This document shows positions 7,565-58,477 of a stretch of 64,000 bases of DNA, piece by piece. Positions within the stretch are counted from its first letter, which is position 1. Every line of letters begins with the position of its first letter. Position numbers and translations under genes: made by a program. Origin of the DNA: an uncultured Gammaproteobacteria bacterium (GTDB lineage Bacteria; Patescibacteriota; Microgenomatia; UBA8517); assembly GCA_964366085.1 (NCBI GenBank), contig CAYISM010000001.1:17211-81210 (forward strand). The letters are read 5' to 3'. The notes below the pieces were generated by a model, which ran no database searches, was not told the origin of the DNA, and saw only the letters and a list, made by a program, of their open reading frames with translations.

Positions 7565-9118
7565 TTATTTTTTAATGTCCTTTCGTAACCTCTCTTCAAT
7601 TTTTATATCACCGAAGTACCTCTCGGAAACCAATCCGGAATATGAATTCTCCTCACCTACTGTCTCGTCCAAATAACGAAGTGGAATCCCAGCCAAAGGC
7701 TCAATTACTAAAAAGTATTGCTTTGTATCCTTGTCCGTTTTCGGCAGACTATCCAACTGCCCGACTTGGTCTTTTCCATGCCACTCTGGTATATAACCAT
7801 ACTTAGGCTGGCCATACCATTTGTAAAGATAAGTCCAAACGATATTGATCCAAAGAGGCGAAGTTAAGGAATTAATACTAAAAGGTCTTCCCTTGGCCTC
7901 ATTGTAAGTATAATCTATGACTGATAACTGTTTTTTCAGAATCATATCTTTCTGTATCGCAAAAATAGTGGATCCTTTCGGATTTTCCTTAAATATCATA
8001 AGAATATTCCCCAAAACAATTACCCAAAAAACCACTAAGGCAATCGCTTTCCCCCCACTGCTTGCCAAATTGTAAATAAATATTCCTAAAATAATTGAAA
8101 CCGCAGGCCCAATTCCTACTAAGAGAAAGGGTGTACTGGTTCCTCCAACAGATACCACGGTAATATGACTTAAAAGCCATGAGACAATAAAAGGCTGCCA
8201 CCCCACCTCGCCCTCCCGGCTTCGAGAGGCAAGTGCACCACTTCTCCACTCAACAATCGCCATAATAATCAATATAAGTACAAAAACTCCTCCGTAACCT
8301 ACGTTTCCGGGATAACTCGAATAGGCAAAAACTCGTCCTATCTGGTTAATAAAAAGTAGTAAAAAATCCCCAAGCCCTTTTGAAGCAACAATACTATCTT
8401 GTGTAGTTAGCAGGGACAAAACACCTCCGATACCTTTAAAACCAAATTTTATTTCGGATATTAAAATTGTCGAAATCGAAAGCAAAAAAAATATTCCGAA
8501 CTTTATTAGGCTTTTTTTATCAATATTTTTTCTGGCAAACCACAGCCATAAAACCAGCGGTACCGCGTGGTAAAGAAGAAATATTTCCGCTTGAATACTT
8601 AAACCCAATCCGATAGCCGCAACAATTGGGCCCCAACTCTTTTTCTCTTTAATCCAGACCCACAGTCCGAGATAGAATAGCGGCACAGTCCAAACACCGA
8701 TAGTGGGATTTGAAAGCCAAGTGGCATATTGTGTTGCCTCAAAAGAAATTGCGAAAAGTATTGCGGCAACAAGTCCGGCCTTTTGACTTTTTGTAAAAAG
8801 ATAGGACAGATAAAAAACTATAAAAACCGTCAAGGCATTTAACAAAGCTATCCAATAAGCCGCGACAATCGGACTTCCATGCCCTAAATAGTAAGCGGGT
8901 GCGAGTAGGTAGTAATAAAAAACTCCATGATATAAGCCCGGTGTGGAAGCAGGTGGACCTAAAACTTTAAGATCTCCTTTTAAGATTTCTTGACTAACAT
9001 ATGCATCCCTCGCCTGATCGTATCCGAAAGTCAAAGAGAGATTCTTTAAAAAAATCACCCTTAAAAAGAAGGCTAAAACAAAAACAAGAAGTAGGGCCAC
9101 CAAAACAGTTTTTTTCAT
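7565..9118 (-). CDS. GT-C-type polytopic membrane glycosyltransferase (ArnT/PMT_2-like); member of a three-gene paralog set with 24488-26038 and 26585-28198
   Basis: N-terminal TM, then FGYDQARDAYVSQEIL, then a Y-rich YHGVFYYYLLAPAYYLG loop. The same architecture is found in the other two paralogs. Confidence 0.55.
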   Translation of the reverse strand: MKKTVLVALLLVFVLAFFLRVIFLKNLSLTFGYDQARDAYVSQEILKGDLKVLGPPASTPGLYHGVFYYYLLAPAYYLGHGSPIVAAYWIALLNALTVFIVFYLSYLFTKSQKAGLVAAILFAISFEATQYATWLSNPTIGVWTVPLFYLGLWVWIKEKKSWGPIVAAIGLGLSIQAEIFLLYHAVPLVLWLWFARKNIDKKSLIKFGIFFLLSISTILISEIKFGFKGIGGVLSLLTTQDSIVASKGLGDFLLLFINQIGRVFAYSSYPGNVGYGGVFVLILIIMAIVEWRSGALASRSREGEVGWQPFIVSWLLSHITVVSVGGTSTPFLLVGIGPAVSIILGIFIYNLASSGGKAIALVVFWVIVLGNILMIFKENPKGSTIFAIQKDMILKKQLSVIDYTYNEAKGRPFSINSLTSPLWINIVWTYLYKWYGQPKYGYIPEWHGKDQVGQLDSLPKTDKDTKQYFLVIEPLAGIPLRYLDETVGEENSYSGLVSERYFGDIKIEERLRKDIKK

Positions 9119-11610
9119 TTTGTTACCAAAGTATATCTTCCTTCTTTAGCTTTGCCAAGAGCGGAGAGTAGCAGACAAACGGATATAAGAGAAAGTAGCG
9201 AAACTATACTAATTTTCAACCCTTTATAAAAAGACTCGGGCTTGTAGGTGAAGAAAATTTCATACACACCTGCTCTAATTGGAACTGCTCTGAAGGCAAA
9301 ATCTGCTCGGTAGATTTTCGTTTCAACACACCCATCAACCCCACTTCGTCCTTCGGACTTCGAGGGGCAAGCATACGCCTTCCACCCTGGATAAAATGTG
9401 TCCGAAACAAAAAGTATTCCATCCTGGCTGCTTTCTGTTTTAATAACACTTTCATTCTCCGAATACTTCCGGTACTCAACTTTTGATACATTTGGCATTC
9501 TTACTACCTTTTCACCATCTAAATTTTCTTCAAGTATTACCTTTTTCCCCAGAGGAAATTCTGGGTCTAATAATTTGTCTATTATCCTATTTTCATCTTT
9601 CTCAATCTCCCAGTCATAAACAATAAATGCCCTGGGCAAAACATTTTTATTTTCTAAAATTGCGACTGATTTATCTTCAAATACCTTTTTAAAACGAACA
9701 TTTTGGAATTCCTCGGGAATTTCCCCGACCTGACTAGGGTTACCCCTATTATCCCTCTTTAATGTTAAGAAATATTTTGTGTTTACTAAATTCATAAGCG
9801 GAGAATAAACATTATCGATAGTTCCATATCTTCCGACTGGATCTGTTCCACTTCTTTGGCTATTGATCGCTGCGATCAACTTTGAAATCCTTAAGGGGTA
9901 AACCGCATCATATCCTTCCAAGGAATCAAGTCCATAGTTCATTCTCATATTAATGGGGATAACCCGAGAACCGGTAATTCTTACTGGTTTTTCTTGGGAT
10001 ATCAAAAAATCAAGAACCGGAGTTTTCGGAAAAACTATATTTCTTGGAGAGAAAGGAGTAAATTTCCAGCCAAACTTAAAAAGCTCGACAATGGCAACGC
10101 CAAAAAGTACTACGAAAAAAATCTTTCTAGAATTTTCTTTTGATTTCCGGGACAGGAAAAAAAATATAGTAACAAGTGTAAATGCACATAAAGGTATCAC
10201 CATGTTTCTTAAGGCAACTGTAAATTTCGGAATACCTCCTTCTGTTAAAATGCCAAGAAAATTAGGATTTATCCTTCCCAGATAAAAATAAACTAAGGAA
10301 TAAATTCCAAAACTGAGTAGAATGATCCCGGAGGGAATAAGCGACTTTAGTCTTATCTTTCCTTTCAAAAAGAGATCCACTCCAAAACCGGCAAGAATAG
10401 CGATCGATAAATTAAATAGTACTAGAGATCTATGGGCGCTTGCTGCGTTAAGCCCAAAAATTCCACTTTTCCAAAGAAAAACCGAGACGGGCGTGGGGAA
10501 GGCGAAAATGAGGCTTACGACAAGTAAGATAAATCCATAAAGAACTTCTCTCTTCTTTTTAACAATAATATATGTGGCCGAGGCGAGACCGAAAGCAACG
10601 ACGCCAACAAAGCCGGTATTGGAAGTATAATCTTGGGGTCCCCAATAATTTTTAGTTGAATGGTTACCAAAAAAATCAGCGGCCAAAAAGGTAATTGTCT
10701 TTGTCCAAGGCAAAAAAGCCCATTCAAATGGATGTGGTTCAACCGTTCTTTGAGATAGGGAAAGTAACTCCGCTCCCGGTAAAATCTGAAAAGCGGCTAA
10801 ACCCAAACCCAAGGTGAAAAATATTCCCAAAAAGGCAGTTTTGTAAATCCAATCCTTCCTTCTCCAAATCCTCACAATCCATAAAATAAAAACTGCCAAA
10901 AGTAAATAAAGAGCAACTTGTGGATATCCCGAAAGGAAAAGTAGTCCCAAAGAAATCGTCATCCCTATGCCACCTAAAATCTTTCCTTCCAAAAGCCATA
11001 TGTCAACAAAAAGAATAATCAGAGGAATAAAAGCAGCCGCTAGAGTATGTCCATTCCACTGGGACCAGATCAGATTAAATCCTGAAAAAGCAAAAACTAC
11101 CCCTCCGAAAATTGCTCCTTTTTTCGAAACTTTCCAATATCTCAGTAAAAAATATGTAAAAGTGGCCGCTAAAAAGTGCTGTAAAATTATTTGAAAACTC
11201 CAGGCGCTTAATTTGTCAAAAATAAAATACACGAAATTTGTCGGAGAAAAAGGAGCCGACTGAAAATTTGCGAGGAGTGGTGTCCCGGCCAGAATGTAGG
11301 AATTCCAAAGAGGAAGCTTTCCACCTTTAAGAAGATCAATTGCTAACATCTGCATTGGATATGTAAAAGAGACAACGTCTGTAGTTAAGGGATTTTTTAC
11401 AGGAACTCCCACGGAATAGCCCCACTTATAATCAAGCCAAGGAAAATAAACTCCAACGACAAAATCTCCGGGTATAGGAACCTGTTTAAGCAGAAAAACT
11501 TTCCAGAAGAAAAGAAAAACAATTCCAACAATTATTAAGTAAGGGAGGAGAAAATTATATGATTTCCAAGATTTCTCTTTCAAATCTCTCATACGAGAAG
11601 TTTTGAGCAT
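9115..11610 (-). CDS. YfhO-family large membrane protein (GT-C-like glycosyltransferase)
   Basis: 831 aa. The N-terminal segment PGDFVVGVYFPWLDY...LPLWNSYILAGTPLLANFQSAPFSP resembles the YfhO family. Many TMs with a C-terminal extracytoplasmic domain and a final TM. Confidence 0.55.
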   Translation of the reverse strand: MLKTSRMRDLKEKSWKSYNFLLPYLIIVGIVFLFFWKVFLLKQVPIPGDFVVGVYFPWLDYKWGYSVGVPVKNPLTTDVVSFTYPMQMLAIDLLKGGKLPLWNSYILAGTPLLANFQSAPFSPTNFVYFIFDKLSAWSFQIILQHFLAATFTYFLLRYWKVSKKGAIFGGVVFAFSGFNLIWSQWNGHTLAAAFIPLIILFVDIWLLEGKILGGIGMTISLGLLFLSGYPQVALYLLLAVFILWIVRIWRRKDWIYKTAFLGIFFTLGLGLAAFQILPGAELLSLSQRTVEPHPFEWAFLPWTKTITFLAADFFGNHSTKNYWGPQDYTSNTGFVGVVAFGLASATYIIVKKKREVLYGFILLVVSLIFAFPTPVSVFLWKSGIFGLNAASAHRSLVLFNLSIAILAGFGVDLFLKGKIRLKSLIPSGIILLSFGIYSLVYFYLGRINPNFLGILTEGGIPKFTVALRNMVIPLCAFTLVTIFFFLSRKSKENSRKIFFVVLFGVAIVELFKFGWKFTPFSPRNIVFPKTPVLDFLISQEKPVRITGSRVIPINMRMNYGLDSLEGYDAVYPLRISKLIAAINSQRSGTDPVGRYGTIDNVYSPLMNLVNTKYFLTLKRDNRGNPSQVGEIPEEFQNVRFKKVFEDKSVAILENKNVLPRAFIVYDWEIEKDENRIIDKLLDPEFPLGKKVILEENLDGEKVVRMPNVSKVEYRKYSENESVIKTESSQDGILFVSDTFYPGWKAYACPSKSEGRSGVDGCVETKIYRADFAFRAVPIRAGVYEIFFTYKPESFYKGLKISIVSLLSLISVCLLLSALGKAKEGRYTLVTK

Positions 11611-46487: not shown

Positions 46488-47174
46488 TTATCCAGGTGGA
46501 AAGGTTGGAGAAGCAGACGGTGATGCGCTGGGTGTTGGTGTCGCTGTTGGTGAAGGCTTTGGAGTCTGTCCCTTTCTAAGTCCGGTCACTACTTCAACAC
46601 TTTTTCCACTCAATATTCCTGTTTTGGTTTGTACATCTTTATAAATATCGTTTAAATTTACAGTTATTTCATCGATTGCCGATTGTGCCAGACTTTGATC
46701 GAAAATAACAATTGTTGTGTCAACGTCAGTTCTTTCCTTATTTCCAACCGTTATGGATGTGTAACCCAAACCCTTTAGCTTGCCTTGCAAATAAGCCGCC
46801 TCACCTGAGATAGAAGTACCATTTAGTACCTCTATTTTTATTTTCGTCTTATCAATCGGCTCAGCCGTTGGGGTTGGGGTTGGGGTTGAAGGTGAATTAA
46901 ACTCAACCGACCCGGTTGTTTCAGGAGGAATAGTTTCTTGAGAAATTCGTAATTTCCTTACTATAAAAAATCCGCCTATCAACGCGAGTAAAAGTAGGAA
47001 TACTAAAAGCATTACCGAGCTCTTATTCGAGGATTTGGGTCCTGGGCTATAATTTGAAAAAGATTGCGGTTCTTCTTTCGTCTCTTCCACGACTTCTTGC
47101 TGCGTCTCACCTTCTACTTTTGTATTCTCTTCCATGTGGCCGCAAGTATAGACATACCAAAACCTTTTTGTCAA
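46488..47174 (-). CDS. LytR_C-domain (LytR/CpsA/Psr C-terminal) membrane-anchored protein with Pro/Thr linkers
   Basis: IKIEVLNGTSISGEAAYLQGKLKGLGYTSITVGN resembles the LytR_C domain; TM anchor; TPTPTPT linkers. Confidence 0.5.
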   Translation of the reverse strand: MTKRFWYVYTCGHMEENTKVEGETQQEVVEETKEEPQSFSNYSPGPKSSNKSSVMLLVFLLLLALIGGFFIVRKLRISQETIPPETTGSVEFNSPSTPTPTPTAEPIDKTKIKIEVLNGTSISGEAAYLQGKLKGLGYTSITVGNKERTDVDTTIVIFDQSLAQSAIDEITVNLNDIYKDVQTKTGILSGKSVEVVTGLRKGQTPKPSPTATPTPSASPSASPTFPPG

Positions 47175-47251
47175 TTATCATTTTAGCCACGCTTTCTTTA
47201 GTTGAACTAAATCGTCATTTAAGATTAACTCTCTAATTCGTTTCATTAAAT

Positions 47252-47283
47252 TTCTTCTGAAGTTAGAAGAAGTCACTTTTTTT
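47252..47283. terminator. Weak hairpin (TTCTTCT-gaagtt-AGAAGAA) followed after 5 nt by a T7 run; possible terminator downstream of the FKBP and LytR_C genes
   Basis: 7-bp stem read from the sequence. The T-run is offset and the strand is ambiguous. Confidence 0.2.
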
Positions 47284-47289
47284 AAATTA

Positions 47290-47778
47290 TCACTCGACCT
47301 TTAGAAGTTCTACTTCGAAGATTAAAGTTGCGTTGGGGCCAATTACGCCACCCGCACCGTTTTCCCCGTAACCCAAATCAGGTGGAATCGTGAGCCGGCG
47401 CTTTCCGCCAACTTTCATTCCGGATACTCCCAAATCCCATCCTTTTATAACCTCGCCGACGCCTAAATTAAAGCTAAATGGTTGCTTTCTGTCATAAGAA
47501 CTGTCAAATTTGGTTCCATTCTCAAGGGTTCCCAAATAATCAACAGTTACCTTTTTGCCGGATACTGCTTCCTCTCCCGTACCAATCTTTATATCTTCGA
47601 TTTTTAATTGATTCATATCTTTTTCCTTCTCTTGATTAATGATATCAGACGGGGAACTTTGCGTCTCAATTAATGACGGATTAATTTCTTTTTTGTTTCC
47701 ATCCTTCAAAAAAATAAAGGCAATTAAGGCTACGAAAATTAAAATAACTATTATCAAGACAATTTTGACTTTTGACAT
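47290..47778 (-). CDS. FKBP-type peptidyl-prolyl cis-trans isomerase with N-terminal membrane anchor
   Basis: VTVDYLGTLENGTKFDSSYDRKQPFSFNLGVGEVIKGWDLGVSGMKVGGKRRLTIPPDLGYG. Confidence 0.8.
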   Translation of the reverse strand: MSKVKIVLIIVILIFVALIAFIFLKDGNKKEINPSLIETQSSPSDIINQEKEKDMNQLKIEDIKIGTGEEAVSGKKVTVDYLGTLENGTKFDSSYDRKQPFSFNLGVGEVIKGWDLGVSGMKVGGKRRLTIPPDLGYGENGAGGVIGPNATLIFEVELLKVE

Positions 47779-47800
47779 GCTGAAATATTTTAGCACTCTT

Positions 47801-47995
47801 TCAATTTGTAAAAAGATGGTAAAACTTATCATTTTCATCGTGTCCGGTTCTTGAAAGAAGGGTTGCGTTATATCCGAAGGCTGCTTCGTCAACGGTCAAG
47901 CCGGGAGGAGTATTAAGAATTCTATAAGAAAAAAATAAGGCCAGGGCGATTAAAACGATGCCCGCCAGAAAAATTTTCTTTAAAGTTTTATTCAT
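47801..47995 (-). pseudogene. Truncated N-terminal fragment (64 aa) of an ArnT/PMT_2-like GT-C glycosyltransferase
   Basis: TM helix then LTVDEAAFGYNATLLSRTGHDENDKFYHLF, which closely parallels the first-loop DE motifs of the genes at 655-2358 and 2374-3942. It stops after 64 codons and sits 10 nt from the left direct repeat. Confidence 0.4.
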
Positions 47996-48071: not shown

Positions 48072-51000
48072 TCATCCTGTTTGATCAATTATGTCAAAAA
48101 TCCGTTGTCGCTCCTTGATATCCTCAATTTTTGGACCAATTACTTCTTTAATTGCTGCTTTGGGATCAACTGTATGATTCATAATTGCAGCTACCCTTGT
48201 CGTTGCCCTAAGAGAGAACGGAAAATCAACCTGCTCTAAGCTTCTGCCACTTTGATAAGCATCGAAGGCTTCTCTGATTTTGTTGGCAACTTTTACGACA
48301 ATAAGTAGACGCTTTACCGCATCCTCTCGCTCCGCAGTTTTGAACTGTTCTCCCCCTTTACCTTGCTCTTTATTTACTACCAAATTCCAGAGCGAAACAA
48401 ATTCCGTTTGATTAAGCGCTTTAAGTGGTTCCATCATCTTGGCTGCCATTTCTGCCTCGTCCGAGCGATACCTCACTTGATTCTGGCTACCCGTTTCCTG
48501 CAAAGGTGGATAGCCATACAGTAAAATATCAGCTCTGTCTTTGACCTCTGGTGATAACTTTTTGGTTCCAATATAACGAGTAGGATTCATGTCTCCAACA
48601 AACAAAACGCTTGGATGGGCACGAATTTGTTGTTTTCGATTGCCCTCTGTAACGAAAACCGAACGACGATAATCAAAAAGGGAGTTGAGCAATTTGAGGA
48701 CTTCCGGTGGTAATGTATTAATTTCAGTGAAGTCAATCATTGTCCCTGGCCTTTGTATACCATTAATGAGTTGAGAGGGAATCTTTACAGTTCCTGTCTT
48801 GGGGTCAAACCAATATTCATAGATCAAATCCTGCCTTTCCATGGAAAAGTTACATGGAATCGTAACAATTTCCTCGTTAGTAAAATGGCCGAACATGTCC
48901 CAAAGAACATTTTTGCCTGCGCCAGCTTCACTCTCAACGACCAAAATCCCATCCTGCATCTCTAATTGTAATTTGGCTCTCTTGGCAATCCTGCCATGCA
49001 TTTCTCGCATGTATTGAGTGTAAACCCATTTTTCATTCCAAGTCGGGACTGTCCTTTCTTGGGCCGCAAAAAACGCTCGAGCTTCAGGAGTAGTCAAAGA
49101 AATTACTTGCTCAGTAGTAGGATCAGTTAAGGATAGGGGAATGGACCCTAATCTATCAGGAACAAATTCTCGGCCGCTAGTGTCCGCATAGACTAAATGA
49201 CCAAATTGACTGCCTGGAGACAAGGGGACAATTTTTGGTGCCCAAGCAGCTTTAGACTGGGCAAAAACAGGAAATTTTTCCCCTGCAAAATCAACCTCGC
49301 CTGCTTTTTGTAATACTCCTGCACTTTTAGCAATACGAAGATTCGTGGTTGCCTTAGCTAATAATGCCTCTAGTTTAGTCTCCTCTTCTTGCCTCAATTC
49401 TGACGGGAGTGAGAGAATTTTTGCTCGCAGTTGAATAAGTTGGGGACTTCTTCTCAGCCTTTCCAAATCCGCATTTGATGCTACCGTTTCTATAATTCTT
49501 GTTTCAAATTCACTGACGCCCTGACGGATAATGTCAACTTCGCCGACCAATTTCGTCCTTTTCGCTTCTTCTGCTAGTACCGCAGACTGCCTGATTTGTT
49601 CTCGTTTAGAGTTTATTACTCCTGATAATTTTTGCTGCCACTCAGCTGCTGCCTTAGGATCTTTAATGAAAAAGGTAAGTTGATCAAACTTGAGAATTGC
49701 TTCGTGGCCTGAGAGGTCAGAAAGCTCATCGAGAGAGCCCGCCCTGTCAATTAACGCTTGTACGCGGGTTAACTCTCCAGGAAGAATTGAGGTGATTTGT
49801 GCTTGATAATGCTCAACTACCGTATCTCTTTTCTGTTTTAATGCTTGGATTCTTTCATCTATTTCCCTTCTCTTCTCCGGATCAATAATATTGGCCTTCC
49901 CTCTTTCTAACTCCAATTCTGTTACTTTAGCATCCAAATTGGCCGCTTGGTCGACAGTTTTTATATCTTTCCCCAAAGTTTCGACCCGACTAATTGCCTG
50001 GGCAAGTCCCTCGACTTGAATGGCAGAAATTCTGCCACCGATATCAGCCTCCATTTTATTAAAGCTCTGGGGGTAGTCTATAAATCGTGAATCCTGTTTG
50101 AGTCTTTCTATATCTGAGGAGACCAGAGCCAATTCATTAGGAGTTTTAGCCTTATTAATTCTCTCACCAAATAGCTTCTGTAACTGGGCTTCAAGTGCTT
50201 TATTCACGTCTATTTCAGTAAATTTACGCGGGGTTCTGGCTTGCGCGGTGTCTACAGTCAAGTTCCCGGCTGCTTCTATCAGTTGACGTAATCTTTCCTC
50301 ATGCTGTCTTTTAACTGCTTCAACACCCCCAGGTGGAATACCTGCAAAGTTGGTCTGAACCAGGCGGACTCGATTTTGATCGTCTGAAAAATAGATCTGT
50401 CCATCAGGCGCTACCGTCATATCTCCACCGACTCCATCGATTTCCTTTACTTTTTTACCCGAAGCTTTGTCAACGATTACCAATTTGCCTGAGGTTTCAC
50501 TTGGGTCTTTTTTAACTGTCAGAACAAAAAAATTGCCATTTGGTTCTAATGCAAAGTCTGTCGGTCTACCTCCTAAATCTTCCATGGGGACTGGCCGAAC
50601 GTCTGGATTTCGGCTTTTGACAGAAGAAATGTTTATCGTTTGAACTTTCCCGGTGGCTTGATCCAAAACATAGATCAGTTCAGGATCGTTGGGGTTATAA
50701 GAAGCCTCTTGAGTCAATTGTCTATAAAGAACTTCCTTAGTTTTCGGATCGGTAATTGTTAATAAGCCCTGATAATCCCGTTTCATTTCGACATCGTATT
50801 TTGTAATACTTATTGTTTGTTCTCGTGGTGTTGCTAGTTGTGGGGGAATGTCGCTAATAGATAATATGCCATCCCCTCCCATTATCTTTGAATCGATTAG
50901 TGAACGATATCTCCACTTACCCGGTGAAACAATCTGACCTTTGTTGGCAACTTCAGCAATAATTGGTTTTCCAGCAACCACTATTCTGATGAAATTCCCA

Positions 51001-51581
51001 TCAGGAGAGATCTCAAGATGAGGGTCTACGGTTAAGAGAGGAGTTGTTCCAAAAACAGTTTTGGGCGATTGAGCCAATCCACTTCTTAGCTTACTCATTT
51101 CTATATACAGTTTTTCATCACTTTTTTCTACTATGTTGTGAGTGATTTGCTTGGCAAGTTCAAATACTTTACTAGCCAACTCTAACCCTATCGGTTCAGA
51201 TAGATCTTGACAGTACTTCTTTGGAAATTCATCAAAACGTACCCAATTGCCGCCTTTTTTTGTGGATAATTCAGCAATATCCTCCAGTGTTAGTGCTCGA
51301 TAAAAAGGTAGAATAACTTTGTCTCCTTGATTGTCATAAATGTCAATAACGTAGCCGTTAGGTTCGCCCCGAACAACAAATGTATAACCCCGCGCGGCTG
51401 TAATACTTTCAATTCTAGTTGTGGAATTGTCTTTAAGTATTTCTGGTGGTTGGAGTTCGGCTTGAACGAACGATCCCAAACCACTTTCGGCAGGTACGGG
51501 CCTGAGAGCGTCCCCCATTTGTCCAGTAATTCGTTCTGATGCAAGTGGTTCTGTCATTTTATCCGATAATAAAAGCTTCAA
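48072..51581 (-). CDS. Giant multidomain protein: N-terminal NHL/beta-propeller-like repeats, long coiled coil, C-terminal MoxR/AAA_5-like ATPase module with non-canonical Walker motifs
   Basis: 1169 aa. The repeats include VAPDGQIYFSDDQNRV and EPNGNFFVLTV. About 400 aa are heptad-rich. The C-terminal module reads ESEAGAGKN (Walker A-like), MIDFTEINTLPPEVLKLLNSLFDYRR (Walker B region, D to T) and VLFVGDMNP...LSPEVKDRADILL (sensor/Arg region), which parallels MoxR. Confidence 0.65.
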   Translation of the reverse strand: MKLLLSDKMTEPLASERITGQMGDALRPVPAESGLGSFVQAELQPPEILKDNSTTRIESITAARGYTFVVRGEPNGYVIDIYDNQGDKVILPFYRALTLEDIAELSTKKGGNWVRFDEFPKKYCQDLSEPIGLELASKVFELAKQITHNIVEKSDEKLYIEMSKLRSGLAQSPKTVFGTTPLLTVDPHLEISPDGNFIRIVVAGKPIIAEVANKGQIVSPGKWRYRSLIDSKIMGGDGILSISDIPPQLATPREQTISITKYDVEMKRDYQGLLTITDPKTKEVLYRQLTQEASYNPNDPELIYVLDQATGKVQTINISSVKSRNPDVRPVPMEDLGGRPTDFALEPNGNFFVLTVKKDPSETSGKLVIVDKASGKKVKEIDGVGGDMTVAPDGQIYFSDDQNRVRLVQTNFAGIPPGGVEAVKRQHEERLRQLIEAAGNLTVDTAQARTPRKFTEIDVNKALEAQLQKLFGERINKAKTPNELALVSSDIERLKQDSRFIDYPQSFNKMEADIGGRISAIQVEGLAQAISRVETLGKDIKTVDQAANLDAKVTELELERGKANIIDPEKRREIDERIQALKQKRDTVVEHYQAQITSILPGELTRVQALIDRAGSLDELSDLSGHEAILKFDQLTFFIKDPKAAAEWQQKLSGVINSKREQIRQSAVLAEEAKRTKLVGEVDIIRQGVSEFETRIIETVASNADLERLRRSPQLIQLRAKILSLPSELRQEEETKLEALLAKATTNLRIAKSAGVLQKAGEVDFAGEKFPVFAQSKAAWAPKIVPLSPGSQFGHLVYADTSGREFVPDRLGSIPLSLTDPTTEQVISLTTPEARAFFAAQERTVPTWNEKWVYTQYMREMHGRIAKRAKLQLEMQDGILVVESEAGAGKNVLWDMFGHFTNEEIVTIPCNFSMERQDLIYEYWFDPKTGTVKIPSQLINGIQRPGTMIDFTEINTLPPEVLKLLNSLFDYRRSVFVTEGNRKQQIRAHPSVLFVGDMNPTRYIGTKKLSPEVKDRADILLYGYPPLQETGSQNQVRYRSDEAEMAAKMMEPLKALNQTEFVSLWNLVVNKEQGKGGEQFKTAEREDAVKRLLIVVKVANKIREAFDAYQSGRSLEQVDFPFSLRATTRVAAIMNHTVDPKAAIKEVIGPKIEDIKERQRIFDIIDQTG

Positions 51582-53809
51582 ATCTGTCTCATTCTTGAGA
51601 CATATAAAAGTGTGTTTCGCAAAACCTGGAATGCTGATTCTGGTAATTGACCGAATGTCTCCGGCACAGCAACATTTTCTTCACCAAAATAGAAAGCCAG
51701 ATCTCTTTTCAACTGCTCTCTTTGGACAGGATCCTGAGCTAGTGCAAAGGCTTTAAGAATGGTACTTGATTTTCTCGTACCGATGTAATCTTTGAGTTCT
51801 TGACCTGTCCTTCCCGCATTAGCTCTACCATCAGAAATGGTGAAAATGGCGCCAAAACTTTCCGGAAAAATCCTCTGCGCTTCACTTGTTTCCTCTAAAG
51901 CTTTTGTTATACCGCTATCTAGATCAGTCGATTCACCACTGGCATTAGTCATAGTTACCAGTTTTTTCTTAATCGCATATCTTGGCTCATCGAAAGGTTG
52001 TGTAAAGTCCATAATTTGTTCCGTTTGACTGCCAAATAATTTGATAGCGAAAGGCATTTCGTAATGCTTAAAAACTTGGGCAAAGAAAATAGCGGTTTTG
52101 ATAGCTACCTCCATTTTTTCGCCCGACATACTACTACTGTTATCGATAAGTAGGGTTGCGTAGAGTAAGGCCTCGGGCAAATCTACGACTTCTTTTCTTT
52201 TAAGGATTCTATAATCTCCTACCGGTATTCTTTGAGCCGCCGTTCGACTATCCGGTCTACTTCCGGTTATAAAGCGTCCTGTTCTTACTACGCGATACTT
52301 TTTGGGAACATACGGGTCGATCATGTCGATGAATCGTCGGGTGTAAGGAAGTATTTCTGCTTCAAGTTGTTGATAACGGCGGTAGTGTTCTAAATCCTGC
52401 TCGTCAAATCCTGCTCGTAACATTTCTGTCTTTTCCTGCATCTTCCCCTCTTTACTTCGTCGTTCCGAGTCCCTTGTCTGTTGAGCCTGTGACTCTTTAC
52501 TAAGACGTTCCATTTCTCCAGTTTCCATTTCTGATAACATTTTTTCGAGCTCAGCCGCTGTTTTTTGACCATTCTTTGGATCTTCCCCCTTAAGATGAGC
52601 CTTGTATTCTCCTGTTTTTTGGTCTTTTTCCATCCGAAGAAGTTTTGGGAGCTCTTTATTTAGTGTTTCTGATTGTTTACGGTCAAGTTCCTCCCGAGCT
52701 TTGGCCATTAATCTCTGTTTTAAATCTTCTGGTAGTTGTTCGATGGCCTTCTCAAGAGCTGCTTCCTGCTCTGGTGATAGTTCGCCTGGTTGTTGATCCT
52801 CTGATCCGCCTTGTTGGCCACCCCTAAGCGATTTTTCAAGTTCTCGCTTCAAGTCTTGAGGCAATTTCTGGGTGGCTTCTCGCCCCGGATTGTTACCGAT
52901 CTCTTCTCCTGATTGCTGGCCCTTACCTTGACCACGTCTCTCTTGTCCCTGTCCTTGTTGACCTTGGCCTTGGCCTTTCTGCTCCTGCTGGAGGTTTTGC
53001 TTTATCTGGTCTTTAGCTTCGTCTTTCTGAGCTTGCGCTTCCAAAACTTTAAAAGTTGGCCAGATTTTTTCTCTGAAGAGTTTGTGATTATCTGCCGGGG
53101 TTGCCCCGTAAAAATATTCTTCTAGTGCTGGTTTTATTTGTTCAAAGGCGCTTCTAACTCTTTCATCTTTAAGAGTGGGTAAATTCTCTCCAGTAAGCCA
53201 GTAGTAAATGACATTTAATCCTAGTTGGTGGGTAATTGGCTGAGTAGATACATGGGGAATAATTTCTGCCGTGCTGGCTGCGTATCTTGTTTTCATCTGC
53301 TGCTCTACTACCGTGGAGTCTTCAATTTCTCGAATATTTACCCAAACATCCTCGGGATAGTTAATTGCCATGGCATAGGTACTAGGCAAAACGCCTTGCT
53401 CTTGTGCCCACCTTTGCCCTTCAAGGAATAATCTATAATCTGTATTATTGACATGTCCCACTTCGTGACGAAGTACACCCAGAACTTCATCCTCTGGCTT
53501 GGTGGCTACTTCTTTCTCATCATAGTGAATTTGGGTTGGGTGAAATGTTGAGTTTGGTAAGCCGTCCAAGGTGGGTCTTTGACCCATGACATATTTCTCT
53601 ACTTCCTCTAAATGTTCGTTGTCTAAACCCGCAGACCAACCCCCGTGTTCTGAAGGAACAACGGTGAGACTATAAGTTCTAGAAAATACCCGTGCTATCC
53701 AAGCCATTTTCTGCTTCCGCTCGGCAACCATTTCCGAAGTCAAAGCCTCCTCTGATCTACTAAGGGCTGATCCAGTCACTTGCACGTTTTTATCTATTAA
53801 CTCGGTCAT
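51578..53809 (-). CDS. HExxH metallopeptidase-like N-terminal domain plus Q/G/E-rich low-complexity linker plus C-terminal VWA (MIDAS) domain protein (DUF2201-like architecture)
   Basis: 743 aa. VLGVLRHEVGHVNNTDY HExxH motif, QQEQKGQGQGQQGQGQERRGQGKGQQ linker, and C-terminal LLIDNSSSMSGEKM...TNASGESTDLDSG VWA/MIDAS. It overlaps the downstream giant gene by 4 bp. Confidence 0.65.
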   Translation of the reverse strand: MTELIDKNVQVTGSALSRSEEALTSEMVAERKQKMAWIARVFSRTYSLTVVPSEHGGWSAGLDNEHLEEVEKYVMGQRPTLDGLPNSTFHPTQIHYDEKEVATKPEDEVLGVLRHEVGHVNNTDYRLFLEGQRWAQEQGVLPSTYAMAINYPEDVWVNIREIEDSTVVEQQMKTRYAASTAEIIPHVSTQPITHQLGLNVIYYWLTGENLPTLKDERVRSAFEQIKPALEEYFYGATPADNHKLFREKIWPTFKVLEAQAQKDEAKDQIKQNLQQEQKGQGQGQQGQGQERRGQGKGQQSGEEIGNNPGREATQKLPQDLKRELEKSLRGGQQGGSEDQQPGELSPEQEAALEKAIEQLPEDLKQRLMAKAREELDRKQSETLNKELPKLLRMEKDQKTGEYKAHLKGEDPKNGQKTAAELEKMLSEMETGEMERLSKESQAQQTRDSERRSKEGKMQEKTEMLRAGFDEQDLEHYRRYQQLEAEILPYTRRFIDMIDPYVPKKYRVVRTGRFITGSRPDSRTAAQRIPVGDYRILKRKEVVDLPEALLYATLLIDNSSSMSGEKMEVAIKTAIFFAQVFKHYEMPFAIKLFGSQTEQIMDFTQPFDEPRYAIKKKLVTMTNASGESTDLDSGITKALEETSEAQRIFPESFGAIFTISDGRANAGRTGQELKDYIGTRKSSTILKAFALAQDPVQREQLKRDLAFYFGEENVAVPETFGQLPESAFQVLRNTLLYVSRMRQI

Positions 53810-53931: not shown

Positions 53932-54183
53932 CTATTTGTAAATTTCTCTTCTGTGACCAACTCGGAGAATAATGATATTTTTACCACCAATGTCGAAAAT
54001 TACTCTGTAATTTCCAGCTCGAAAGCGATATGTTCCTAATCGAGGATCTGTCAGCTTTTTGGAATACTTGAAAGGGCTCAGAGAAAGAAATTCTAACCTC
54101 TTTTTTATTTTCTTTCTGGCAACTCTGTCCAGTTTCTTAATATCCCTTACCGCAGATTTTGTATAAAGAAGATTGTAAACCAT
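53932..54183 (-). CDS. RelE/ParE-superfamily toxin (YoeB/Txe-like)
   Basis: 83 aa; ...YRFRAGNYRVIFDIGGKNIIILRVGHRREIY; start overlaps the antitoxin stop. Confidence 0.75.
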   Translation of the reverse strand: MVYNLLYTKSAVRDIKKLDRVARKKIKKRLEFLSLSPFKYSKKLTDPRLGTYRFRAGNYRVIFDIGGKNIIILRVGHRREIYK

Positions 54184-54431
54184 TAGATCTCACCAAAAAC
54201 TTGGGAGTGCGAAAGAATATCGCCTTTTTTATATTCCTCCCTGGCTTTTTTAATGCTTGCAATATATTTTTTATTGGAGAAAGCCAAAAGATCTTCGAAA
54301 AAATCTATATTAACCAAGGCAGAAGTTATCCTTCCTTTGCGAGACACGAGAAGAAAATCTTTCTTGGATGAAACTTCCTTGATCGCATCCGCTAAATTAT
54401 TCCTAAGCGTCGCAGAACTTACAACATTCAT
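54183..54431 (-). CDS. Phd/YefM-family antitoxin
   Basis: MNVVSSATLRNNLADAIKEVSSKKDFLLVSRKGRITSALVNIDFFEDL is the YefM pattern. A TGTACAATA -10-like element lies 12 nt upstream. The longer ORF extending to 54542 is unlikely to be the real start. Confidence 0.7.
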   Translation of the reverse strand: MNVVSSATLRNNLADAIKEVSSKKDFLLVSRKGRITSALVNIDFFEDLLAFSNKKYIASIKKAREEYKKGDILSHSQVFGEI

Positions 54432-54502
54432 GTCAGTTTCTATTGTACATCTAAAGTGTACGATATCAAGACAACAGTTCCGGTAACGACATTTTTTGCT
54501 TA

Positions 54503-54523
54503 TCCGCCTCTGCTGGAAAATGC
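54503..54523. repeat. Right copy of the 21-bp direct repeat TCCGCCTCTGCTGGAAAATGC
   Basis: Exact match to 48006-48026. Confidence 0.8.
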
Positions 54524-54577
54524 TATACGAATAGGGAACCACACAGTTAGCTCGCTTACTGCTTGCCCCTTCTAAAC

Positions 54578-55630
54578 TTATTGTTGAAAATAATTATTAA
54601 TTGCGAATTGAAGCTGTCCCATATAAAGACGCTTAAAGTTATATAAATTGTTGGTTTCATAGAAAACAACCATAGCACTTCGATATTCGTTAACATCAAT
54701 ATTTCGATAAGATAATGGAAAATAATCGTAAGCCATTAAAACTGCATTTGAAAGCATGCGTGAAGTCCTTTTATTTCCATCAGCAAATGGCTGGATATAT
54801 GCGATCATTATCGCCAATATCAATGCCTTTTCAGGTGAATATTCAGTTTTATTTACACGTTCAATTAATTGCCTTAGTACGTTTTCGATCTGATGTTTAT
54901 CAGATAATGGCTCATACTGCGTCCCGGAAATCTTCACCTTTTGCGATCTAACTCCAGAAGTTATTAGACCTTTCGTTAACACTTGGTGTAACTGAATAAT
55001 ATCGGCAAAATCTAATTTTTTAAATGAATCCTTTTTATCTAAGATCACTTCAAATGCTTTTTTGTGGTTTAAAATCATCACAGCCTCTTCATCTGAATGT
55101 CCATGGGCCTTGATATTCTGTTTAATCAAGGTTTCCGTTTCGATTAAAGTATATGTGTTTCCTTCAATTTGTGATGATTTCCATGAGAGTTCAATGATAA
55201 ATCTCTCAAGTTCTCTTTTATAAATTGATGGATCTAATTTGTTCCCCGCCTCTTTAAAGATTTTTTTGCTTCTTTCCCATAGGTTAATCTCATCCGGTGA
55301 ATATAAATTATTTAGACGAGAAAACACATTATTGTTAAATTTTTTGCTAATAATCCTAGCTTCAATTTCCGTTTTAAAATAATCATCTAGGTCAAGATAT
55401 GTAAGCAGGGAGTTTGTTTCAACCAACCCGTAAATAGTATTTTTCCCCTTCCCCGACATTTCAACAAGATTTAAATCAATAAGGCGATTAAGGTCCCGAA
55501 TAAAAGTGATCCTCGAAATACTTTCGTCAGGTGAAATTTGGCTGGCCAAAACAAGACGGGATATGCTACCCGCCTCTTTTAAGATCTTGAGAATTTTCTT
55601 CTGGCGATCGTTAAGATTCGTATCATTCAT
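54578..55630 (-). CDS. Fic/Doc-family protein with N-terminal winged HTH; core motif QPFADGNKRTSR (catalytic His replaced by Gln)
   Basis: IAYIQPFADGNKRTSRMLSNAVLMAYDYFPL aligns with the canonical Fic HPFxDGNGRTSRLL. Codons were checked directly: CAG at 54791-54793. Start taken at MNDTNL; the ORF track extends to a GTG at 55705. Confidence 0.7.
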   Translation of the reverse strand: MNDTNLNDRQKKILKILKEAGSISRLVLASQISPDESISRITFIRDLNRLIDLNLVEMSGKGKNTIYGLVETNSLLTYLDLDDYFKTEIEARIISKKFNNNVFSRLNNLYSPDEINLWERSKKIFKEAGNKLDPSIYKRELERFIIELSWKSSQIEGNTYTLIETETLIKQNIKAHGHSDEEAVMILNHKKAFEVILDKKDSFKKLDFADIIQLHQVLTKGLITSGVRSQKVKISGTQYEPLSDKHQIENVLRQLIERVNKTEYSPEKALILAIMIAYIQPFADGNKRTSRMLSNAVLMAYDYFPLSYRNIDVNEYRSAMVVFYETNNLYNFKRLYMGQLQFAINNYFQQ

Positions 55631-55639
55631 ACTCTTTAA

Positions 55640-55659
55640 TCGTATCATAAATGATACGA
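55640..55659. promoter_or_regulatory. Perfect 9-bp inverted repeat TCGTATCAT-aa-ATGATACGA upstream of the fic-like gene
   Basis: Read directly from the sequence. It lies between the secA stop and the probable fic start, so it is a candidate operator. Confidence 0.35.
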
Positions 55660-55699
55660 ATAGTGAACACTCCGAAGAGCTCGGCGAATGGAACTCAAT

Positions 55700-55718
55700 G
55701 TACACCTCGGAGGTGTAC
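55700..55718. promoter_or_regulatory. 8-bp stem, 3-nt loop hairpin GTACACCT-cgg-AGGTGTAC just downstream of the secA stop; candidate terminator or operator
   Basis: Read directly from the sequence; no clear U-tract follows on the minus-sense strand. Confidence 0.3.
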
Positions 55719-55729
55719 TAGCTTGGCAC

Positions 55730-58477
55730 CTAAGGAATTACCGGATAGTGACAACGTTTCCACTTCTTCCCGGACCCACAGGGACAGGGGTCGTTGCGAC
55801 CCAACTTTTTTTTATTTGATGTTGATTGTTGGTTGTTGGTTGTTGGTTGTTTGAAGGCGGGCTCGCCAGTTACTAAAGCTTCTTCAGCCCCACCAGCAAG
55901 GCCAGTCATGTCGGTTGTATCAATATTTTCTCGGACTTTCTCAAGCGGGATTTCTGGTGCCGGAGCAACTCCGATTCTAAAGAGTCTTTGACAAAGCTCC
56001 TCATCAATTCGACCGAACAAATTTTCAAAAAGGGCATATGCCTCGTTTTTAAATTCAACTAACGGATTCCGCTGGCCAACACGTCTTAATTCAACCGCTT
56101 CTCTCAAGTCATCAATGTGGTCAATATGATCAATCCAAAGGTGGTCAATTGACCCAAGATATGCGTATTTTTCAACCTGTCTCATCGCACCCTCACCAAC
56201 TTGCTTTTCTCTTGACGCATAAACATCTGCCAGGACTTTATTCAAAAATTCTTTGATCTCATCTTTGCTTTTGAGATTTGCCTGCCCGACGGCAAGGCGG
56301 GAGATTTGAGATTTGAGATTTTTTATCGATTCATCATCAAAAGGAACAACCTCCAAAAATCCTGCGAGAACTCGTTCATAATCAATAGTTTTATCTTCCT
56401 GTAAAGATGCGCTCAAAGTTTTTTCTATCTGACTTAACAGTTTTCCATTTACTTCCTCTTTAATGTTCGAAGACTCAAGTATCCTTTTCCTTAATCCGTA
56501 AATAATTTCTCTGTGTTGATTTGTTACGTCGTCAAATTCAACCAGTCTTTTCCTCATATCAAAATTAAATCCTTCAACTTTAACCTGCGCCTGCTCGATT
56601 GCCCGCGAAACTAATTTATTTTCAATGGGTTGATCTTCCGGAATTTTAAGAGCTCCCATCAAAGATGCTATTTGTTCTCCTCCAAAAATCCGCATTAGAT
56701 CATCCTCAAGTGAGAGATAGAATCGGGAAGAACCCGGATCTCCCTGACGGCCTGATCTGCCTCTTAATTGGTTATCAATTCGTCTTGATTCATGCCTTTC
56801 GGTTCCAATTACATGGAGGCCTCCCGCTTTAATAACTGCGTCGTGGACCACCTGCCATTTTTTATAAGCAGGGGTTTTTTCATAGACTTCTCTATCCATT
56901 CCGGGAGTCATGTCTGAGGGACTCCCTCCGAGAATAATGTCAACTCCACGGCCTGCCATATTTGTTGCAACAGTTACGGCCCCCGGCCTGCCTGCATCAG
57001 CAATAATCGTCGCTTCTTTTTCATGGTTTTTAGCATTAAGTACGTTGTGAGGAATTTTTCTTCTTTTTAGATATTCTGAAACGATCTCATTTTTTTCAAT
57101 CGAGACAGTTCCAACCAAAACCGGCTGGCCCTTTTTGTGTTTCTCCTCGATTTCGTCAATTATTGCAGTGTATTTCCCTCTTAAAGTTTTATAGATTGAA
57201 TCGGAATTATCGATCCTTATCATTTGTCTGTGCGTTGGAACAACTACAACGTCTAATTTATAAATTTTCCTGAATTCTTCGGCCTCTGTTGCTGCCGTTC
57301 CCGTCATTCCTGATAAAGTTTCGTAGAGCCTAAAGTAATTCTGAAAAGAAATCGTTGCGAGTGTTTTTGATTCTTGTTGGATAGGGATTTCTTCTTTTGC
57401 CTCAACCGCTTGGTGAAGTCCATCGCTCCAGCGCCTGCCGATCATAAGTCGTCCCGTAAATTCGTCGACTATCATTACCTGATTATCTTTGACAACATAA
57501 TCACGATCTTTCAAAAAAAGCGTCCTTGCGCGAAGGGCATTTTCAATATGGTGGATTGATTCAAAATCTTTCTCATACAGATTGGTAACTCCCAGAATTT
57601 TTTCGACTTTGGAGATTCCGTGTTCGGTTAAAGAAGCGCTTTTTACTTTTTCGTCGACTTTATAATCGGTATCCGGATTGAGTTTTTCAACAATTTTTGC
57701 GAACTTGTAATATTTCTCCGTCGGCTCTGTATCCGGCATTGAAATGATAAGCGGCGTTCTTGCTTCGTCAATCAATACAGAGTCAACTTCGTCAACAATG
57801 GCAAAATAGTGGCCCCTTTGACTCATTTCGGGTATGGAACTAACCATGTTGTCACGCAGATAATCAAAACCAAACTCATTGTTTGTCCCGTAAGTAACAT
57901 CGGCCTCATAAGCTAATTTTCTTTCAACTGGTTTTAGATGTGAAAGTCTCTCGTCTCCATGGCTGGTATCAACATATTCGGGATCATAAACAAACGATTT
58001 TCCTTCCTGGACAATCGAACCTGTCGAGAGACCTAAAAGGTGAAAAATTGGTGCGTTCCAACCGGCATCACGGCGGGCTAGATAATCATTAACCGTAACC
58101 AAATGAACTCCACGACCTGAAAGCGCCCTAAGATAAAGCGCGGGAACTGCTGAAAGAGTTTTTCCTTCTCCGGTTTTCTGTTCGGCAATTTTCCCTTCAA
58201 ACAGAGAAACCCCCGCCATAAGTTGGACGTCATAATGTCTAAGTCCAATCGCGCGATATGAAGCCTCCCGGACCAAAGCATAAGCCTCCGGTAAAATGTC
58301 TTCTAAACTTTTACCCTTAGTCAGTTCTTCCTTGAAGAATTCTGTTTTTTTTGCAAAATCTTTGTCTTTTAACTTTTTAATTTTGGGTTCAAACTCGTTT
58401 ATTTGATCAACGATTTTTCTTAATCGATCGACTTCTCTTTGGTTAATGTCAAGGAGTTTGGAAAAAATATTAAACAT
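55730..58477 (-). CDS. secA: Preprotein translocase ATPase SecA
   Basis: 915 aa, DEAD-like motor motifs (GEGKT, MTGTA, VDEVDSVLIDEARTPLIIS), C-terminal zinc-binding CPCGSGKKWKRCH. Confidence 0.95.
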   Translation of the reverse strand: MFNIFSKLLDINQREVDRLRKIVDQINEFEPKIKKLKDKDFAKKTEFFKEELTKGKSLEDILPEAYALVREASYRAIGLRHYDVQLMAGVSLFEGKIAEQKTGEGKTLSAVPALYLRALSGRGVHLVTVNDYLARRDAGWNAPIFHLLGLSTGSIVQEGKSFVYDPEYVDTSHGDERLSHLKPVERKLAYEADVTYGTNNEFGFDYLRDNMVSSIPEMSQRGHYFAIVDEVDSVLIDEARTPLIISMPDTEPTEKYYKFAKIVEKLNPDTDYKVDEKVKSASLTEHGISKVEKILGVTNLYEKDFESIHHIENALRARTLFLKDRDYVVKDNQVMIVDEFTGRLMIGRRWSDGLHQAVEAKEEIPIQQESKTLATISFQNYFRLYETLSGMTGTAATEAEEFRKIYKLDVVVVPTHRQMIRIDNSDSIYKTLRGKYTAIIDEIEEKHKKGQPVLVGTVSIEKNEIVSEYLKRRKIPHNVLNAKNHEKEATIIADAGRPGAVTVATNMAGRGVDIILGGSPSDMTPGMDREVYEKTPAYKKWQVVHDAVIKAGGLHVIGTERHESRRIDNQLRGRSGRQGDPGSSRFYLSLEDDLMRIFGGEQIASLMGALKIPEDQPIENKLVSRAIEQAQVKVEGFNFDMRKRLVEFDDVTNQHREIIYGLRKRILESSNIKEEVNGKLLSQIEKTLSASLQEDKTIDYERVLAGFLEVVPFDDESIKNLKSQISRLAVGQANLKSKDEIKEFLNKVLADVYASREKQVGEGAMRQVEKYAYLGSIDHLWIDHIDHIDDLREAVELRRVGQRNPLVEFKNEAYALFENLFGRIDEELCQRLFRIGVAPAPEIPLEKVRENIDTTDMTGLAGGAEEALVTGEPAFKQPTTNNQQSTSNKKKLGRNDPCPCGSGKKWKRCHYPVIP

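Follow-up and report, generated by a model that had tools for sequence, protein, structure and literature searches.

The subject of this report is a pair of adjoining genes located on the minus strand of a stretch of 64,000 nucleotides (the window) of contig CAYISM010000001.1, assembly GCA_964366085.1. One of them codes for an AAA+ protein of 1161 amino acids (48072–51557) in which two residues of the nucleotide-binding site are replaced. The other, found upstream, codes for a protein of 743 amino acids with a Pfam VWA domain (51578–53809), and its stop codon directly precedes the AAA+ open reading frame (ORF). The AAA+ gene has an ATG at 51557 and its stop codon at 48072–48074, and the reading frame is uninterrupted across the 1161 codons. 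In the ORF list the gene starts at a TTG at 51581 (ORF 48072–51581); all residue numbers in this report are counted from the ATG. An earlier note on this DNA had called attention to the interval 48492–48974, which lies within this ORF and has to be read on the minus strand, an orientation that is corrected here. Translation of the minus strand of 48072–51581 recovered all motif strings quoted in that note. Its description of the ATPase module as embedded in a giant protein has to be amended: with 1161 amino acids the protein is large rather than giant, and the module constitutes its C-terminal end.

The N-terminal portion of the protein, approximately residues 30–405 (50343–51470, minus strand), was recognized as a β-propeller-like domain by AlphaFold2 and Foldseek. 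The model of the first 440 residues, which was generated from a 14-sequence alignment, had a mean pLDDT of 71 that reached about 90 at residues 270–420, and it includes a poorly modelled insert at residues 103–170. The PDB entries matched by this domain in a Foldseek search are β-propellers (Lp49, WD40, NHL and YVTN). A middle region rich in L, A, E, I, K and R follows at approximately residues 406–844 (49026–50342, minus strand). Its length, about 440 residues, is kept across homologues, and a Pfam scan of the region produced no match. A crude heptad score gave no backing to a coiled coil, and the composition does not decide the matter either way; none is claimed here. The AAA+ module, of the MoxR/midasin type, comprises approximately residues 845–1161 (48075–49025, minus strand) and consists of an α/β core and a helical lid according to AlphaFold2, Foldseek and the family profile. 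Homologues of 1058 to 1229 amino acids align end to end with the 1161-amino-acid protein, sharing 22–32% identity.

The assignment of the module to a class was based on profiles, pairwise comparisons and structure prediction. Pfam AAA_5 (PF07728) matched residues 877–1008 (48534–48929, minus strand) with 49.1 bits (gathering threshold, 22; E = 7.5e-13) over positions 7–138 of the 139 in the profile, and this is the only AAA_5 stretch that Pfam detects in the protein. When the protein was compared by phmmer to all PDB sequences, midasin came first (E of about 1e-20), followed by CbbQ and NorQ. In the alignment with midasin AAA3, the Walker A Lys and Thr are matched by K882 and N883, and the Walker B Asp and Glu by T944 and E945. 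A profile of the AAA family, compared to the PDB, again selected midasin (E = 6.8e-62, best over AAA3), ahead of CbbQ (7e-17), NorQ (1e-11) and CobS (2.5e-5). The AlphaFold2 model of residues 820–1161, generated with 29 sequences, had a mean pLDDT of 92.3 and a pTM of 0.86. It shows a β-hairpin in helix 2 (strands 94–99 and 103–108 of the model, between the two pieces of the helix) and a second hairpin (strands 147–152 and 155–160) ahead of the sensor-1 strand, after which comes the helical lid. These two hairpins and an adjoining gene for a VWA/MIDAS partner are among the features by which the MoxR class is recognized. The best Foldseek match of the module in the PDB was CbbQ (6l1q, E = 6.8e-16), together with a series of NorQ structures (9qh4–9qhg, about 1e-15 to 1e-10); the target-normalised TM-scores for CbbQ and NorQ were 0.70–0.79, and dynein and MCM were more distant matches. 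The module is midasin-like by sequence and nearest to the small MoxR ATPases by solved fold. A location of canonical Walker residues elsewhere, or a fold other than AAA+, was ruled out by Pfam, phmmer, the family alignment and AlphaFold/Foldseek. No NCBIfam or PADLOC model matched the AAA+ protein or its VWA partner.

Walker A corresponds to S876-E-A-G-A-G-K882-N883 (48909–48932, minus strand; translation, phmmer and family alignment), in the context VVESEAGAGKN. With respect to the consensus GxxxxGK[ST], the lysine is kept (K882, codon at 48912–48914), and S876 and N883 (AAT, 48909–48911) are found in place of the first glycine and of the Ser/Thr. Walker B corresponds to M940-I-D942-F-T944-E945 (48723–48740, minus strand; phmmer and family alignment), in the context GTMIDFTEIN. 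The departure from hhhhDE is at T944 (ACT, 48726–48728), which occupies the Asp column; the catalytic glutamate, E945, is kept (GAA, 48723–48725; both codons were read in the raw DNA). The sensor-1 strand ends with D989-M-N991 (48585–48593, minus strand), within FVGDMNP, and retains the sensor-1 Asn. The arginine finger, R1008 (48534–48536, minus strand), is located within VKDRADILL, where the AAA_5 match ends; phmmer pairs it with the Arg of the midasin segment R-N-R, and it is invariant in family alignments A1 and A2. Two arginines of the lid, R1095 and R1117 (48207–48275, minus strand), are both candidates for sensor 2 on the basis of their conservation. The first is invariant and the second at least 90% conserved in A1, and both are invariant in A2.

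Relatives of the module were collected by an exhaustive HMMER search with residues 780–1161 over protein cluster representatives, which identified 1208 of them at E ≤ 1e-3; 82 of these reached E ≤ 1e-30. Some 60 cluster representatives share an architecture of about 1100–1200 amino acids with the module at the C-terminus, and 34 align to the 1161-amino-acid protein over its full length. Word-indexed searches with the full-length protein or a full-length alignment found only the protein's own fragment; a module-only alignment did work. The relatives carry no public names other than "AAA family ATPase", "MoxR-like ATPase" or "predicted phosphohydrolase", and where a source organism is named, it is a metagenome-assembled genome of Patescibacteria, Bdellovibrionales or Aquificota. 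The counts that follow were obtained from an alignment of the 150 best representatives of the 1208, of which about 140 cover Walker A; the clusters were defined at 50% identity. The column after the Walker A lysine (K+1) contains Asn in 82 representatives, Asp in 47, Thr in 10 and Ser in one. Asn or Asp is thus present in 129 of 140, and nine of the ten Thr cases are multi-AAA midasin-like giants. Since Asn/Asp prevails to this extent, the asparagine at K+1 is a hallmark of the family and not a lesion of this protein. The rest of the site is well preserved: the Walker A lysine is found in 140/140 representatives and the Walker B glutamate in 145/145. That the NP sensor and the DRx arginine region are preserved, as the earlier note had stated, was confirmed by the columns of N991 (Asn in 148/148) and R1008 (Arg in 145/148). 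Its description of an AAA_5-like ATPase module with substituted columns also holds, as the AAA_5 profile, the midasin alignment, the 150-sequence alignment and the structural model agree and leave the motif columns as they were first read. At the first glycine of GxxxxGK, 120 representatives have Gly and 14 have Ser, so that S876 (48930–48932) is accompanied by 13 others. The second position of the P-loop is acidic (Glu or Asp) in the close family and His in a distant clade characterized by GKD and NE.

The Walker B Asp column is more variable, with Asp in 94 representatives, Asn in 43, Gly in three, Glu in two, and Thr, Ile and Val in one each. Its residue varies together with that at K+1: GKN goes with D-E and GKD goes with N-E. 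When the pairs were tabulated as K+1/Walker B, 77 representatives were N/D and 40 were D/N, followed by T/D (10, nine of them multi-AAA midasin-like), D/G (3), D/D and N/N (2 each), and D/I, D/V, N/E and S/E (one each); the only N/T representative is the 1161-amino-acid protein. The two columns covary, the counts being descriptive. A neighbour-joining tree calculated with the two columns left out implied eight changes at K+1 and ten at the Asp column. Most of the D/N cases belong to one distant clade of proteins of about 1290 amino acids with the motifs GHAGTGKD and NE. Within the close family, Asp at K+1 arose several times, and there the Walker B Asp was usually lost too. The subclade that includes the 1161-amino-acid protein is labile, with D/D (P0024), D/N (P0015), D/V (P0049), D/I (P0039) and N/N (P0046 and P0030).

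Two peculiarities of the collected sequences concern their translation. Trp is found at a family-invariant Gly in nine representatives (P0075, P0079, P0080, P0086, P0091, P0099, P0102, P0109 and P0135), an example being WILEWEAWVGKN where the family has GILEGEAGVGKN. For P0068, the protein on record differs from what its gene gives on translation. Both observations fit lineages in which UGA codes for Gly (code 25, Gracilibacteria/Absconditabacteria) and whose genes were translated with UGA as Trp.

What sets the 1161-amino-acid protein apart from its relatives is the residue in the Walker B Asp column and the presence of two additional aspartates. T944 is the sole Thr in that column of the family alignment. 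D942, two residues before T944, is the only Asp in its column among 148 sequences, where the relatives have Tyr, Val, Leu or Ile. D989, two residues before the sensor-1 Asn, is likewise the only Asp among 148, and the relatives have mostly Ser, Thr, Leu or Ala. The strand that carries D989 neighbours the Walker B strand that carries D942. The Thr codon (ACT) is one substitution away from Asn (AAT), a residue present in the same subclade, and two from Asp; judging from these codons, the Walker B Asp probably became Thr via an Asn intermediate. The protein as a whole is not generally decayed. Of the 57 columns conserved to 75% or more in the close family it departs from nine, which places it 30th for deviation in a set formed by 94 close-family members and the protein itself. 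A sequencing or assembly error, a decaying pseudogene, or true Walker motifs elsewhere would be trivial explanations for its unusual residues, and the origin of the DNA, a metagenome-type sequence with no close relative (the nearest other cluster shares 47% identity over the module), leaves some room for them. However, the ORF is intact, and an identical fragment of 803 amino acids is present in a public ENA assembly. An error would have had to produce the two nucleotide changes that separate Asp from Thr, when Asn takes one; the asparagine at K+1 is common to more than 80 independent clusters; and the profile, family and structure evidence agree on the motif residues. We consider an artefact of this kind extremely improbable.

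The VWA partner is the other constant element of the locus. Its N-terminal domain contains an HExxH motif and is followed by a long linker rich in E, Q, K and G and by a C-terminal VWA domain. The latter, of the MIDAS type (residues 553–706; 51692–52153, minus strand; Pfam VWA, E = 1.4e-5), contains the DxSxS motif as D556-N-S-S-S560 (52130–52144), and D556, S558, S560 and D660 are invariant across six partner orthologues, to all of which the linker is also common. A profile of the partner, compared to the PDB, best matched the MIDAS domain of Rea1/midasin (6qt8, E = 2.2e-7), with CobT next. The N-terminal domain, which had no Pfam family match, includes a zincin-like HExxH, H115-E-V-G-H119 (53453–53467, minus strand). 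This motif is found in five of the six orthologues, the one at locus L091 having HQVGR instead, and all six have R114, H115 and G118. At L085/L086 (P0002) and L091 (P0015), too, the VWA gene comes before the AAA gene, as it does in a split form at L081/L087. In the distant GKD/NE group the adjoining partner is a downstream protein of 1091 amino acids with a transglutaminase-like core and a VWA_2 domain. Because of the HExxH motif here and the transglutaminase-like core in that group, the VWA partners may be regulated peptidases. The other neighbouring genes vary between related loci.

Few residues in biology are conserved as strongly as the Ser/Thr that follows the P-loop lysine and the Asp of Walker B. 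Natural departures from them are rare and informative, and the known cases in AAA+ proteins are torsinA and E. coli DnaC, which are listed as exceptions with Asn at K+1 (10.1101/2022.06.23.497301). The Walker A of torsinA is GxxxxGKN (PMC5628414), and the torsinA–LULL1 structure (PDB 5J1S) shows this Asn in the canonical hydrogen bond with the Asp of Walker B (10.1101/2022.06.23.497301). Both proteins have very low ATPase activity and have been discussed as possible nucleotide-dependent switches that rely on partners (10.1101/2022.06.23.497301; PMC5628414). A natural replacement of the Walker B Asp by Thr is known in the GTPase MglA, where an Asp on the adjacent strand rescues it (10.1101/2022.06.23.497301). 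No description of an Asp at K+1 coupled to a Walker B Asn was found in the sources consulted, and a literature search on "GKN" with AAA+ returned DOI-string matches only.

These precedents bear on how much activity should be expected from the family. One explanation holds that Asn/Asp at K+1 and Thr in Walker B are neutral and that the protein is a standard NorQ/CbbQ-like MoxR hexamer working at ordinary rates. The conservation of the remaining catalytic elements, the MoxR-like fold and the conserved VWA partner agree with such a motor. Furthermore, torsinA N109T behaved like the wild type in a yeast refolding assay, so Asn at this position is not always limiting (PMC5628414). On the other hand, Ser/Thr at K+1 is near-universal in P-loop NTPases, and its natural replacements accompany low activity (10.1101/2022.06.23.497301). 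Neutral drift also explains neither the persistence of Asn/Asp in 129 of 140 representatives, with scarce reversion, nor the coupling of N/D and D/N. A fully competent motor is, in our opinion, distinctly unlikely.

The opposite explanation is that of a pseudo-ATPase, a protein that binds nucleotide weakly or statically, does not hydrolyze it, and serves as an oligomeric platform for the VWA partner. Both canonical residues of the Mg2+ site, those replaced by N883 and T944, are gone in this protein; it is the sole N/T combination in the 140 representatives; and its subclade shows a relaxed constraint on the Asp column. In addition, many P-loop NTPases are inactivated when the Walker B Asp is mutated to Asn, and the GKN proteins torsinA and DnaC have the very low activity described above. 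Against the loss of activity stand the Lys, the Walker B Glu, the sensor-1 Asn, the arginine finger and both lid arginines, all of which are retained and invariant or nearly so. The overall deviation at conserved columns is ordinary, and the unique D942 and D989 beside the site resemble compensation, not decay. Moreover, the protein has a single AAA+ module, so no second site could supply activity, and a dead site would leave the ring without any active site. The precedents of torsinA and DnaC fit a slow, gated ATPase, yet leave real room for a pseudo-ATPase in the particular case of the N/T member. We regard this explanation as rather unlikely. The earlier note had suggested a nucleotide-binding ATPase, catalytically impaired or altered, that perhaps acts as a scaffold or a switch; the pseudo-ATPase is the strong form of that idea. 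Its altered, switch-like side gains from the fact that torsinA and DnaC are weak ATPases with Asn at K+1. The impaired scaffold fares less well, given the family-wide Asn/Asp, the other catalytic residues that are kept, the single module and a degree of degeneracy that is not unusual.

The explanation that we favor, with moderate confidence, is that the protein is a midasin-like, MoxR-class ATPase with a single module and a VWA partner, which would bind Mg-ATP, hydrolyze it slowly or under the control of the partner, and act as a switch-like remodeller rather than as a dead scaffold. It was arrived at from sequences, models and the analogy with related systems. In the family at large, the K+1 and Walker B residues would be linked by a hydrogen bond into an amide/carboxylate pair at the Mg2+ site, in one orientation or the other. 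The nucleotide site would bind Mg-ATP through Lys882 and a pair centred on Asn883, and hydrolysis would be slow, or would take place only when gated by the partner. The ring, presumably a hexamer, would engage the VWA domain as is the case in NorQ/NorD, CbbQ/CbbO and midasin, and would use ATP to alter the partner or a bound target. In NorQ/NorD, a finger from the VWA domain reaches into the pore of the ring, and the partner is remodelled by ATP hydrolysis (PMC13036017). A target could be held by the VWA partner or by the propeller, the latter and the peptidase-like domain of the partner being candidate target-binding or effector parts.

For the 1161-amino-acid protein itself, D942 and D989, each one rung deeper in its strand (Walker B and sensor 1, respectively), may stand in for the carboxylate that was lost. 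A more specific version of the favored explanation, that the pair was rebuilt as an Asn/Asp couple that works either way and that the carboxylate moved to D942 and/or D989 with hydrolysis kept, is put forward tentatively and is judged less likely than not. Several points weigh against the switch-like remodeller and this version of it. N883 and T944 leave no carboxylate at either canonical position, and D942 and D989, two residues deeper in the strands, may be too far from the Mg2+ shell. The covariation counts are phylogenetically non-independent, with most D/N cases coming from one clade, and the two D/D and two N/N representatives indicate that the pairing is not strict. Walker B Asp-to-Asn mutants of other P-loop NTPases generally bind nucleotide and are catalytically incompetent (10.1101/2022.06.23.497301), and the Walker A Thr-to-Asn substitution lowers the activity of ClpB (cited in PMC5628414).

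The pattern, as read from sequences and models, is real, conserved and relevant to the debated chemistry of the P-loop. The ATPase class and the GKN exception are already known. Three features appear to be undescribed: Asn or Asp at K+1 throughout a midasin-like clade of bacteria, its reciprocal exchange with the Walker B column, and, in this member, the combination of Thr with two relocated aspartates. The N/D, D/N, D/G, N/N and N/T members are a natural set of variants with which to probe the roles of the pair in Mg2+ holding, proton relay and gating of hydrolysis. If the carboxylate was relocated and hydrolysis was kept, these variants would test the proton-trap role proposed for the K+1/Walker B pair. 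The family would then represent a new bacterial single-module branch of midasin-like machines.

Other genes surround the pair in the window. On the minus strand, 46488–47892 and 55730–58477 include housekeeping genes for SecA (915 amino acids), a peptidyl-prolyl isomerase of the FKBP type and a protein with a LytR_C domain; at related loci these do not accompany the AAA/VWA pair. The SecA is nearest, with 54% identity, to that of a Candidatus Collierbacteria genome, and the window therefore probably derives from a CPR/Patescibacteria bacterium. Lying between the VWA gene and secA (54183–55705, minus strand) are genes for a Fic/DOC-domain protein (375 amino acids) and then a Phd/YefM-like antitoxin protein (119 amino acids), which have the look of a toxin–antitoxin pair. 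A different arrangement is found at the split locus L081 (2981–10614; JAMDBA010000002.1, a Patescibacteria metagenome-assembled genome), where paralogous genes coding for 295 and 320 amino acids flank the AAA gene; the layout of L087 is similar. The 3′ ends of the two L081 flanking genes (7660–7821 and 10453–10614) match a minus-strand template repeat at about 4400–4560, which adjoins a reverse transcriptase and a bAvd gene, and the mismatches are at template adenines. Together these elements make up a diversity-generating retroelement (DGR) of the classic kind, having two variable regions. Its presence in split relatives hints at a ligand-sensing or conflict role for them. BLASTP of the L081 DGR-target protein against the 1161-amino-acid protein found no match; consequently, no correspondence is detectable between the accessory proteins of the split loci and the N-terminal domain that is fused here.

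Several known systems resemble this family in part. In torsinA and DnaC, too, Asn has naturally taken the place of the Walker A Ser/Thr, but they belong to unrelated AAA+ clades: torsin is Clp/Hsp100-like and has no arginine finger, and DnaC is a loader of the initiator clade, whereas the family described here keeps the arginine finger and, in addition, has the Asp at K+1 that is coupled to a Walker B Asn. Membership among the torsins was considered on the basis of GKN and rejected: since the arginine finger is kept and the fold is of the MoxR type, the 1161-amino-acid protein is not a torsin. The MoxR-vWA ternary conflict systems (Kaur et al. 2020, PMC7159879) combine a MoxR-vWA core with β-propeller and peptidase-like domains, a combination similar to that found here, and are enriched in multicellular bacteria (PMC7159879). 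They differ in that the locus described here includes no VMAP, iSTAND or FtsH component. An assignment to the MoxR-vWA-β-propeller conflict systems was not retained, as the described propeller is on the vWA protein (PMC7159879), here it is on the ATPase, and PADLOC gave no match. Systems in which DGR-diversified sensors are found beside MoxR ATPases have been described (PMC10907252), and the DGR targets of L081 echo them. A search of the literature on MoxR/VWA systems encoded by Patescibacteria found nothing specific.

The pairs NorQ/NorD, CbbQ/CbbO and CobS/CobT have in common with this locus an adjoining VWA partner with an intact MIDAS motif. NorQ and CbbQ are also the closest solved folds and share the insert in helix 2 and the hairpin before sensor 1. 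The NorQ, CbbQ and CobS ATPases are proteins of about 260–330 amino acids with canonical GK[ST] and D-E; the protein described here has Asn in the P-loop, Thr in Walker B, and about 840 additional N-terminal residues that include the β-propeller-like domain. In the partner, the HExxH domain replaces the N-domains of NorD and CbbO. Midasin (Rea1/Mdn1) is the best PDB sequence relative of both the AAA module and the MIDAS domain of the partner, and the logic is the same: an AAA_5 ring, a long charged linker and a MIDAS-type VWA domain. Some AAA modules of midasin also have a degenerate Walker B, as in S. pombe AAA1, where I-L-F-T-N-I-E aligns to the M-I-D-F-T-E-I-N region. However, the midasin-like hits keep GK[ST] and the 1161-amino-acid protein has GKN. 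The architecture that defines midasin/Rea1, six tandem AAA modules with a MIDAS domain at the C-terminus of the same eukaryotic chain of about 4900 amino acids, is not that of this bacterial system, in which one module and the VWA domain are on separate proteins. The family can be described as a split, single-module relative of midasin in small-genome uncultured bacteria, the MIDAS partner of which carries peptidase-like domains.

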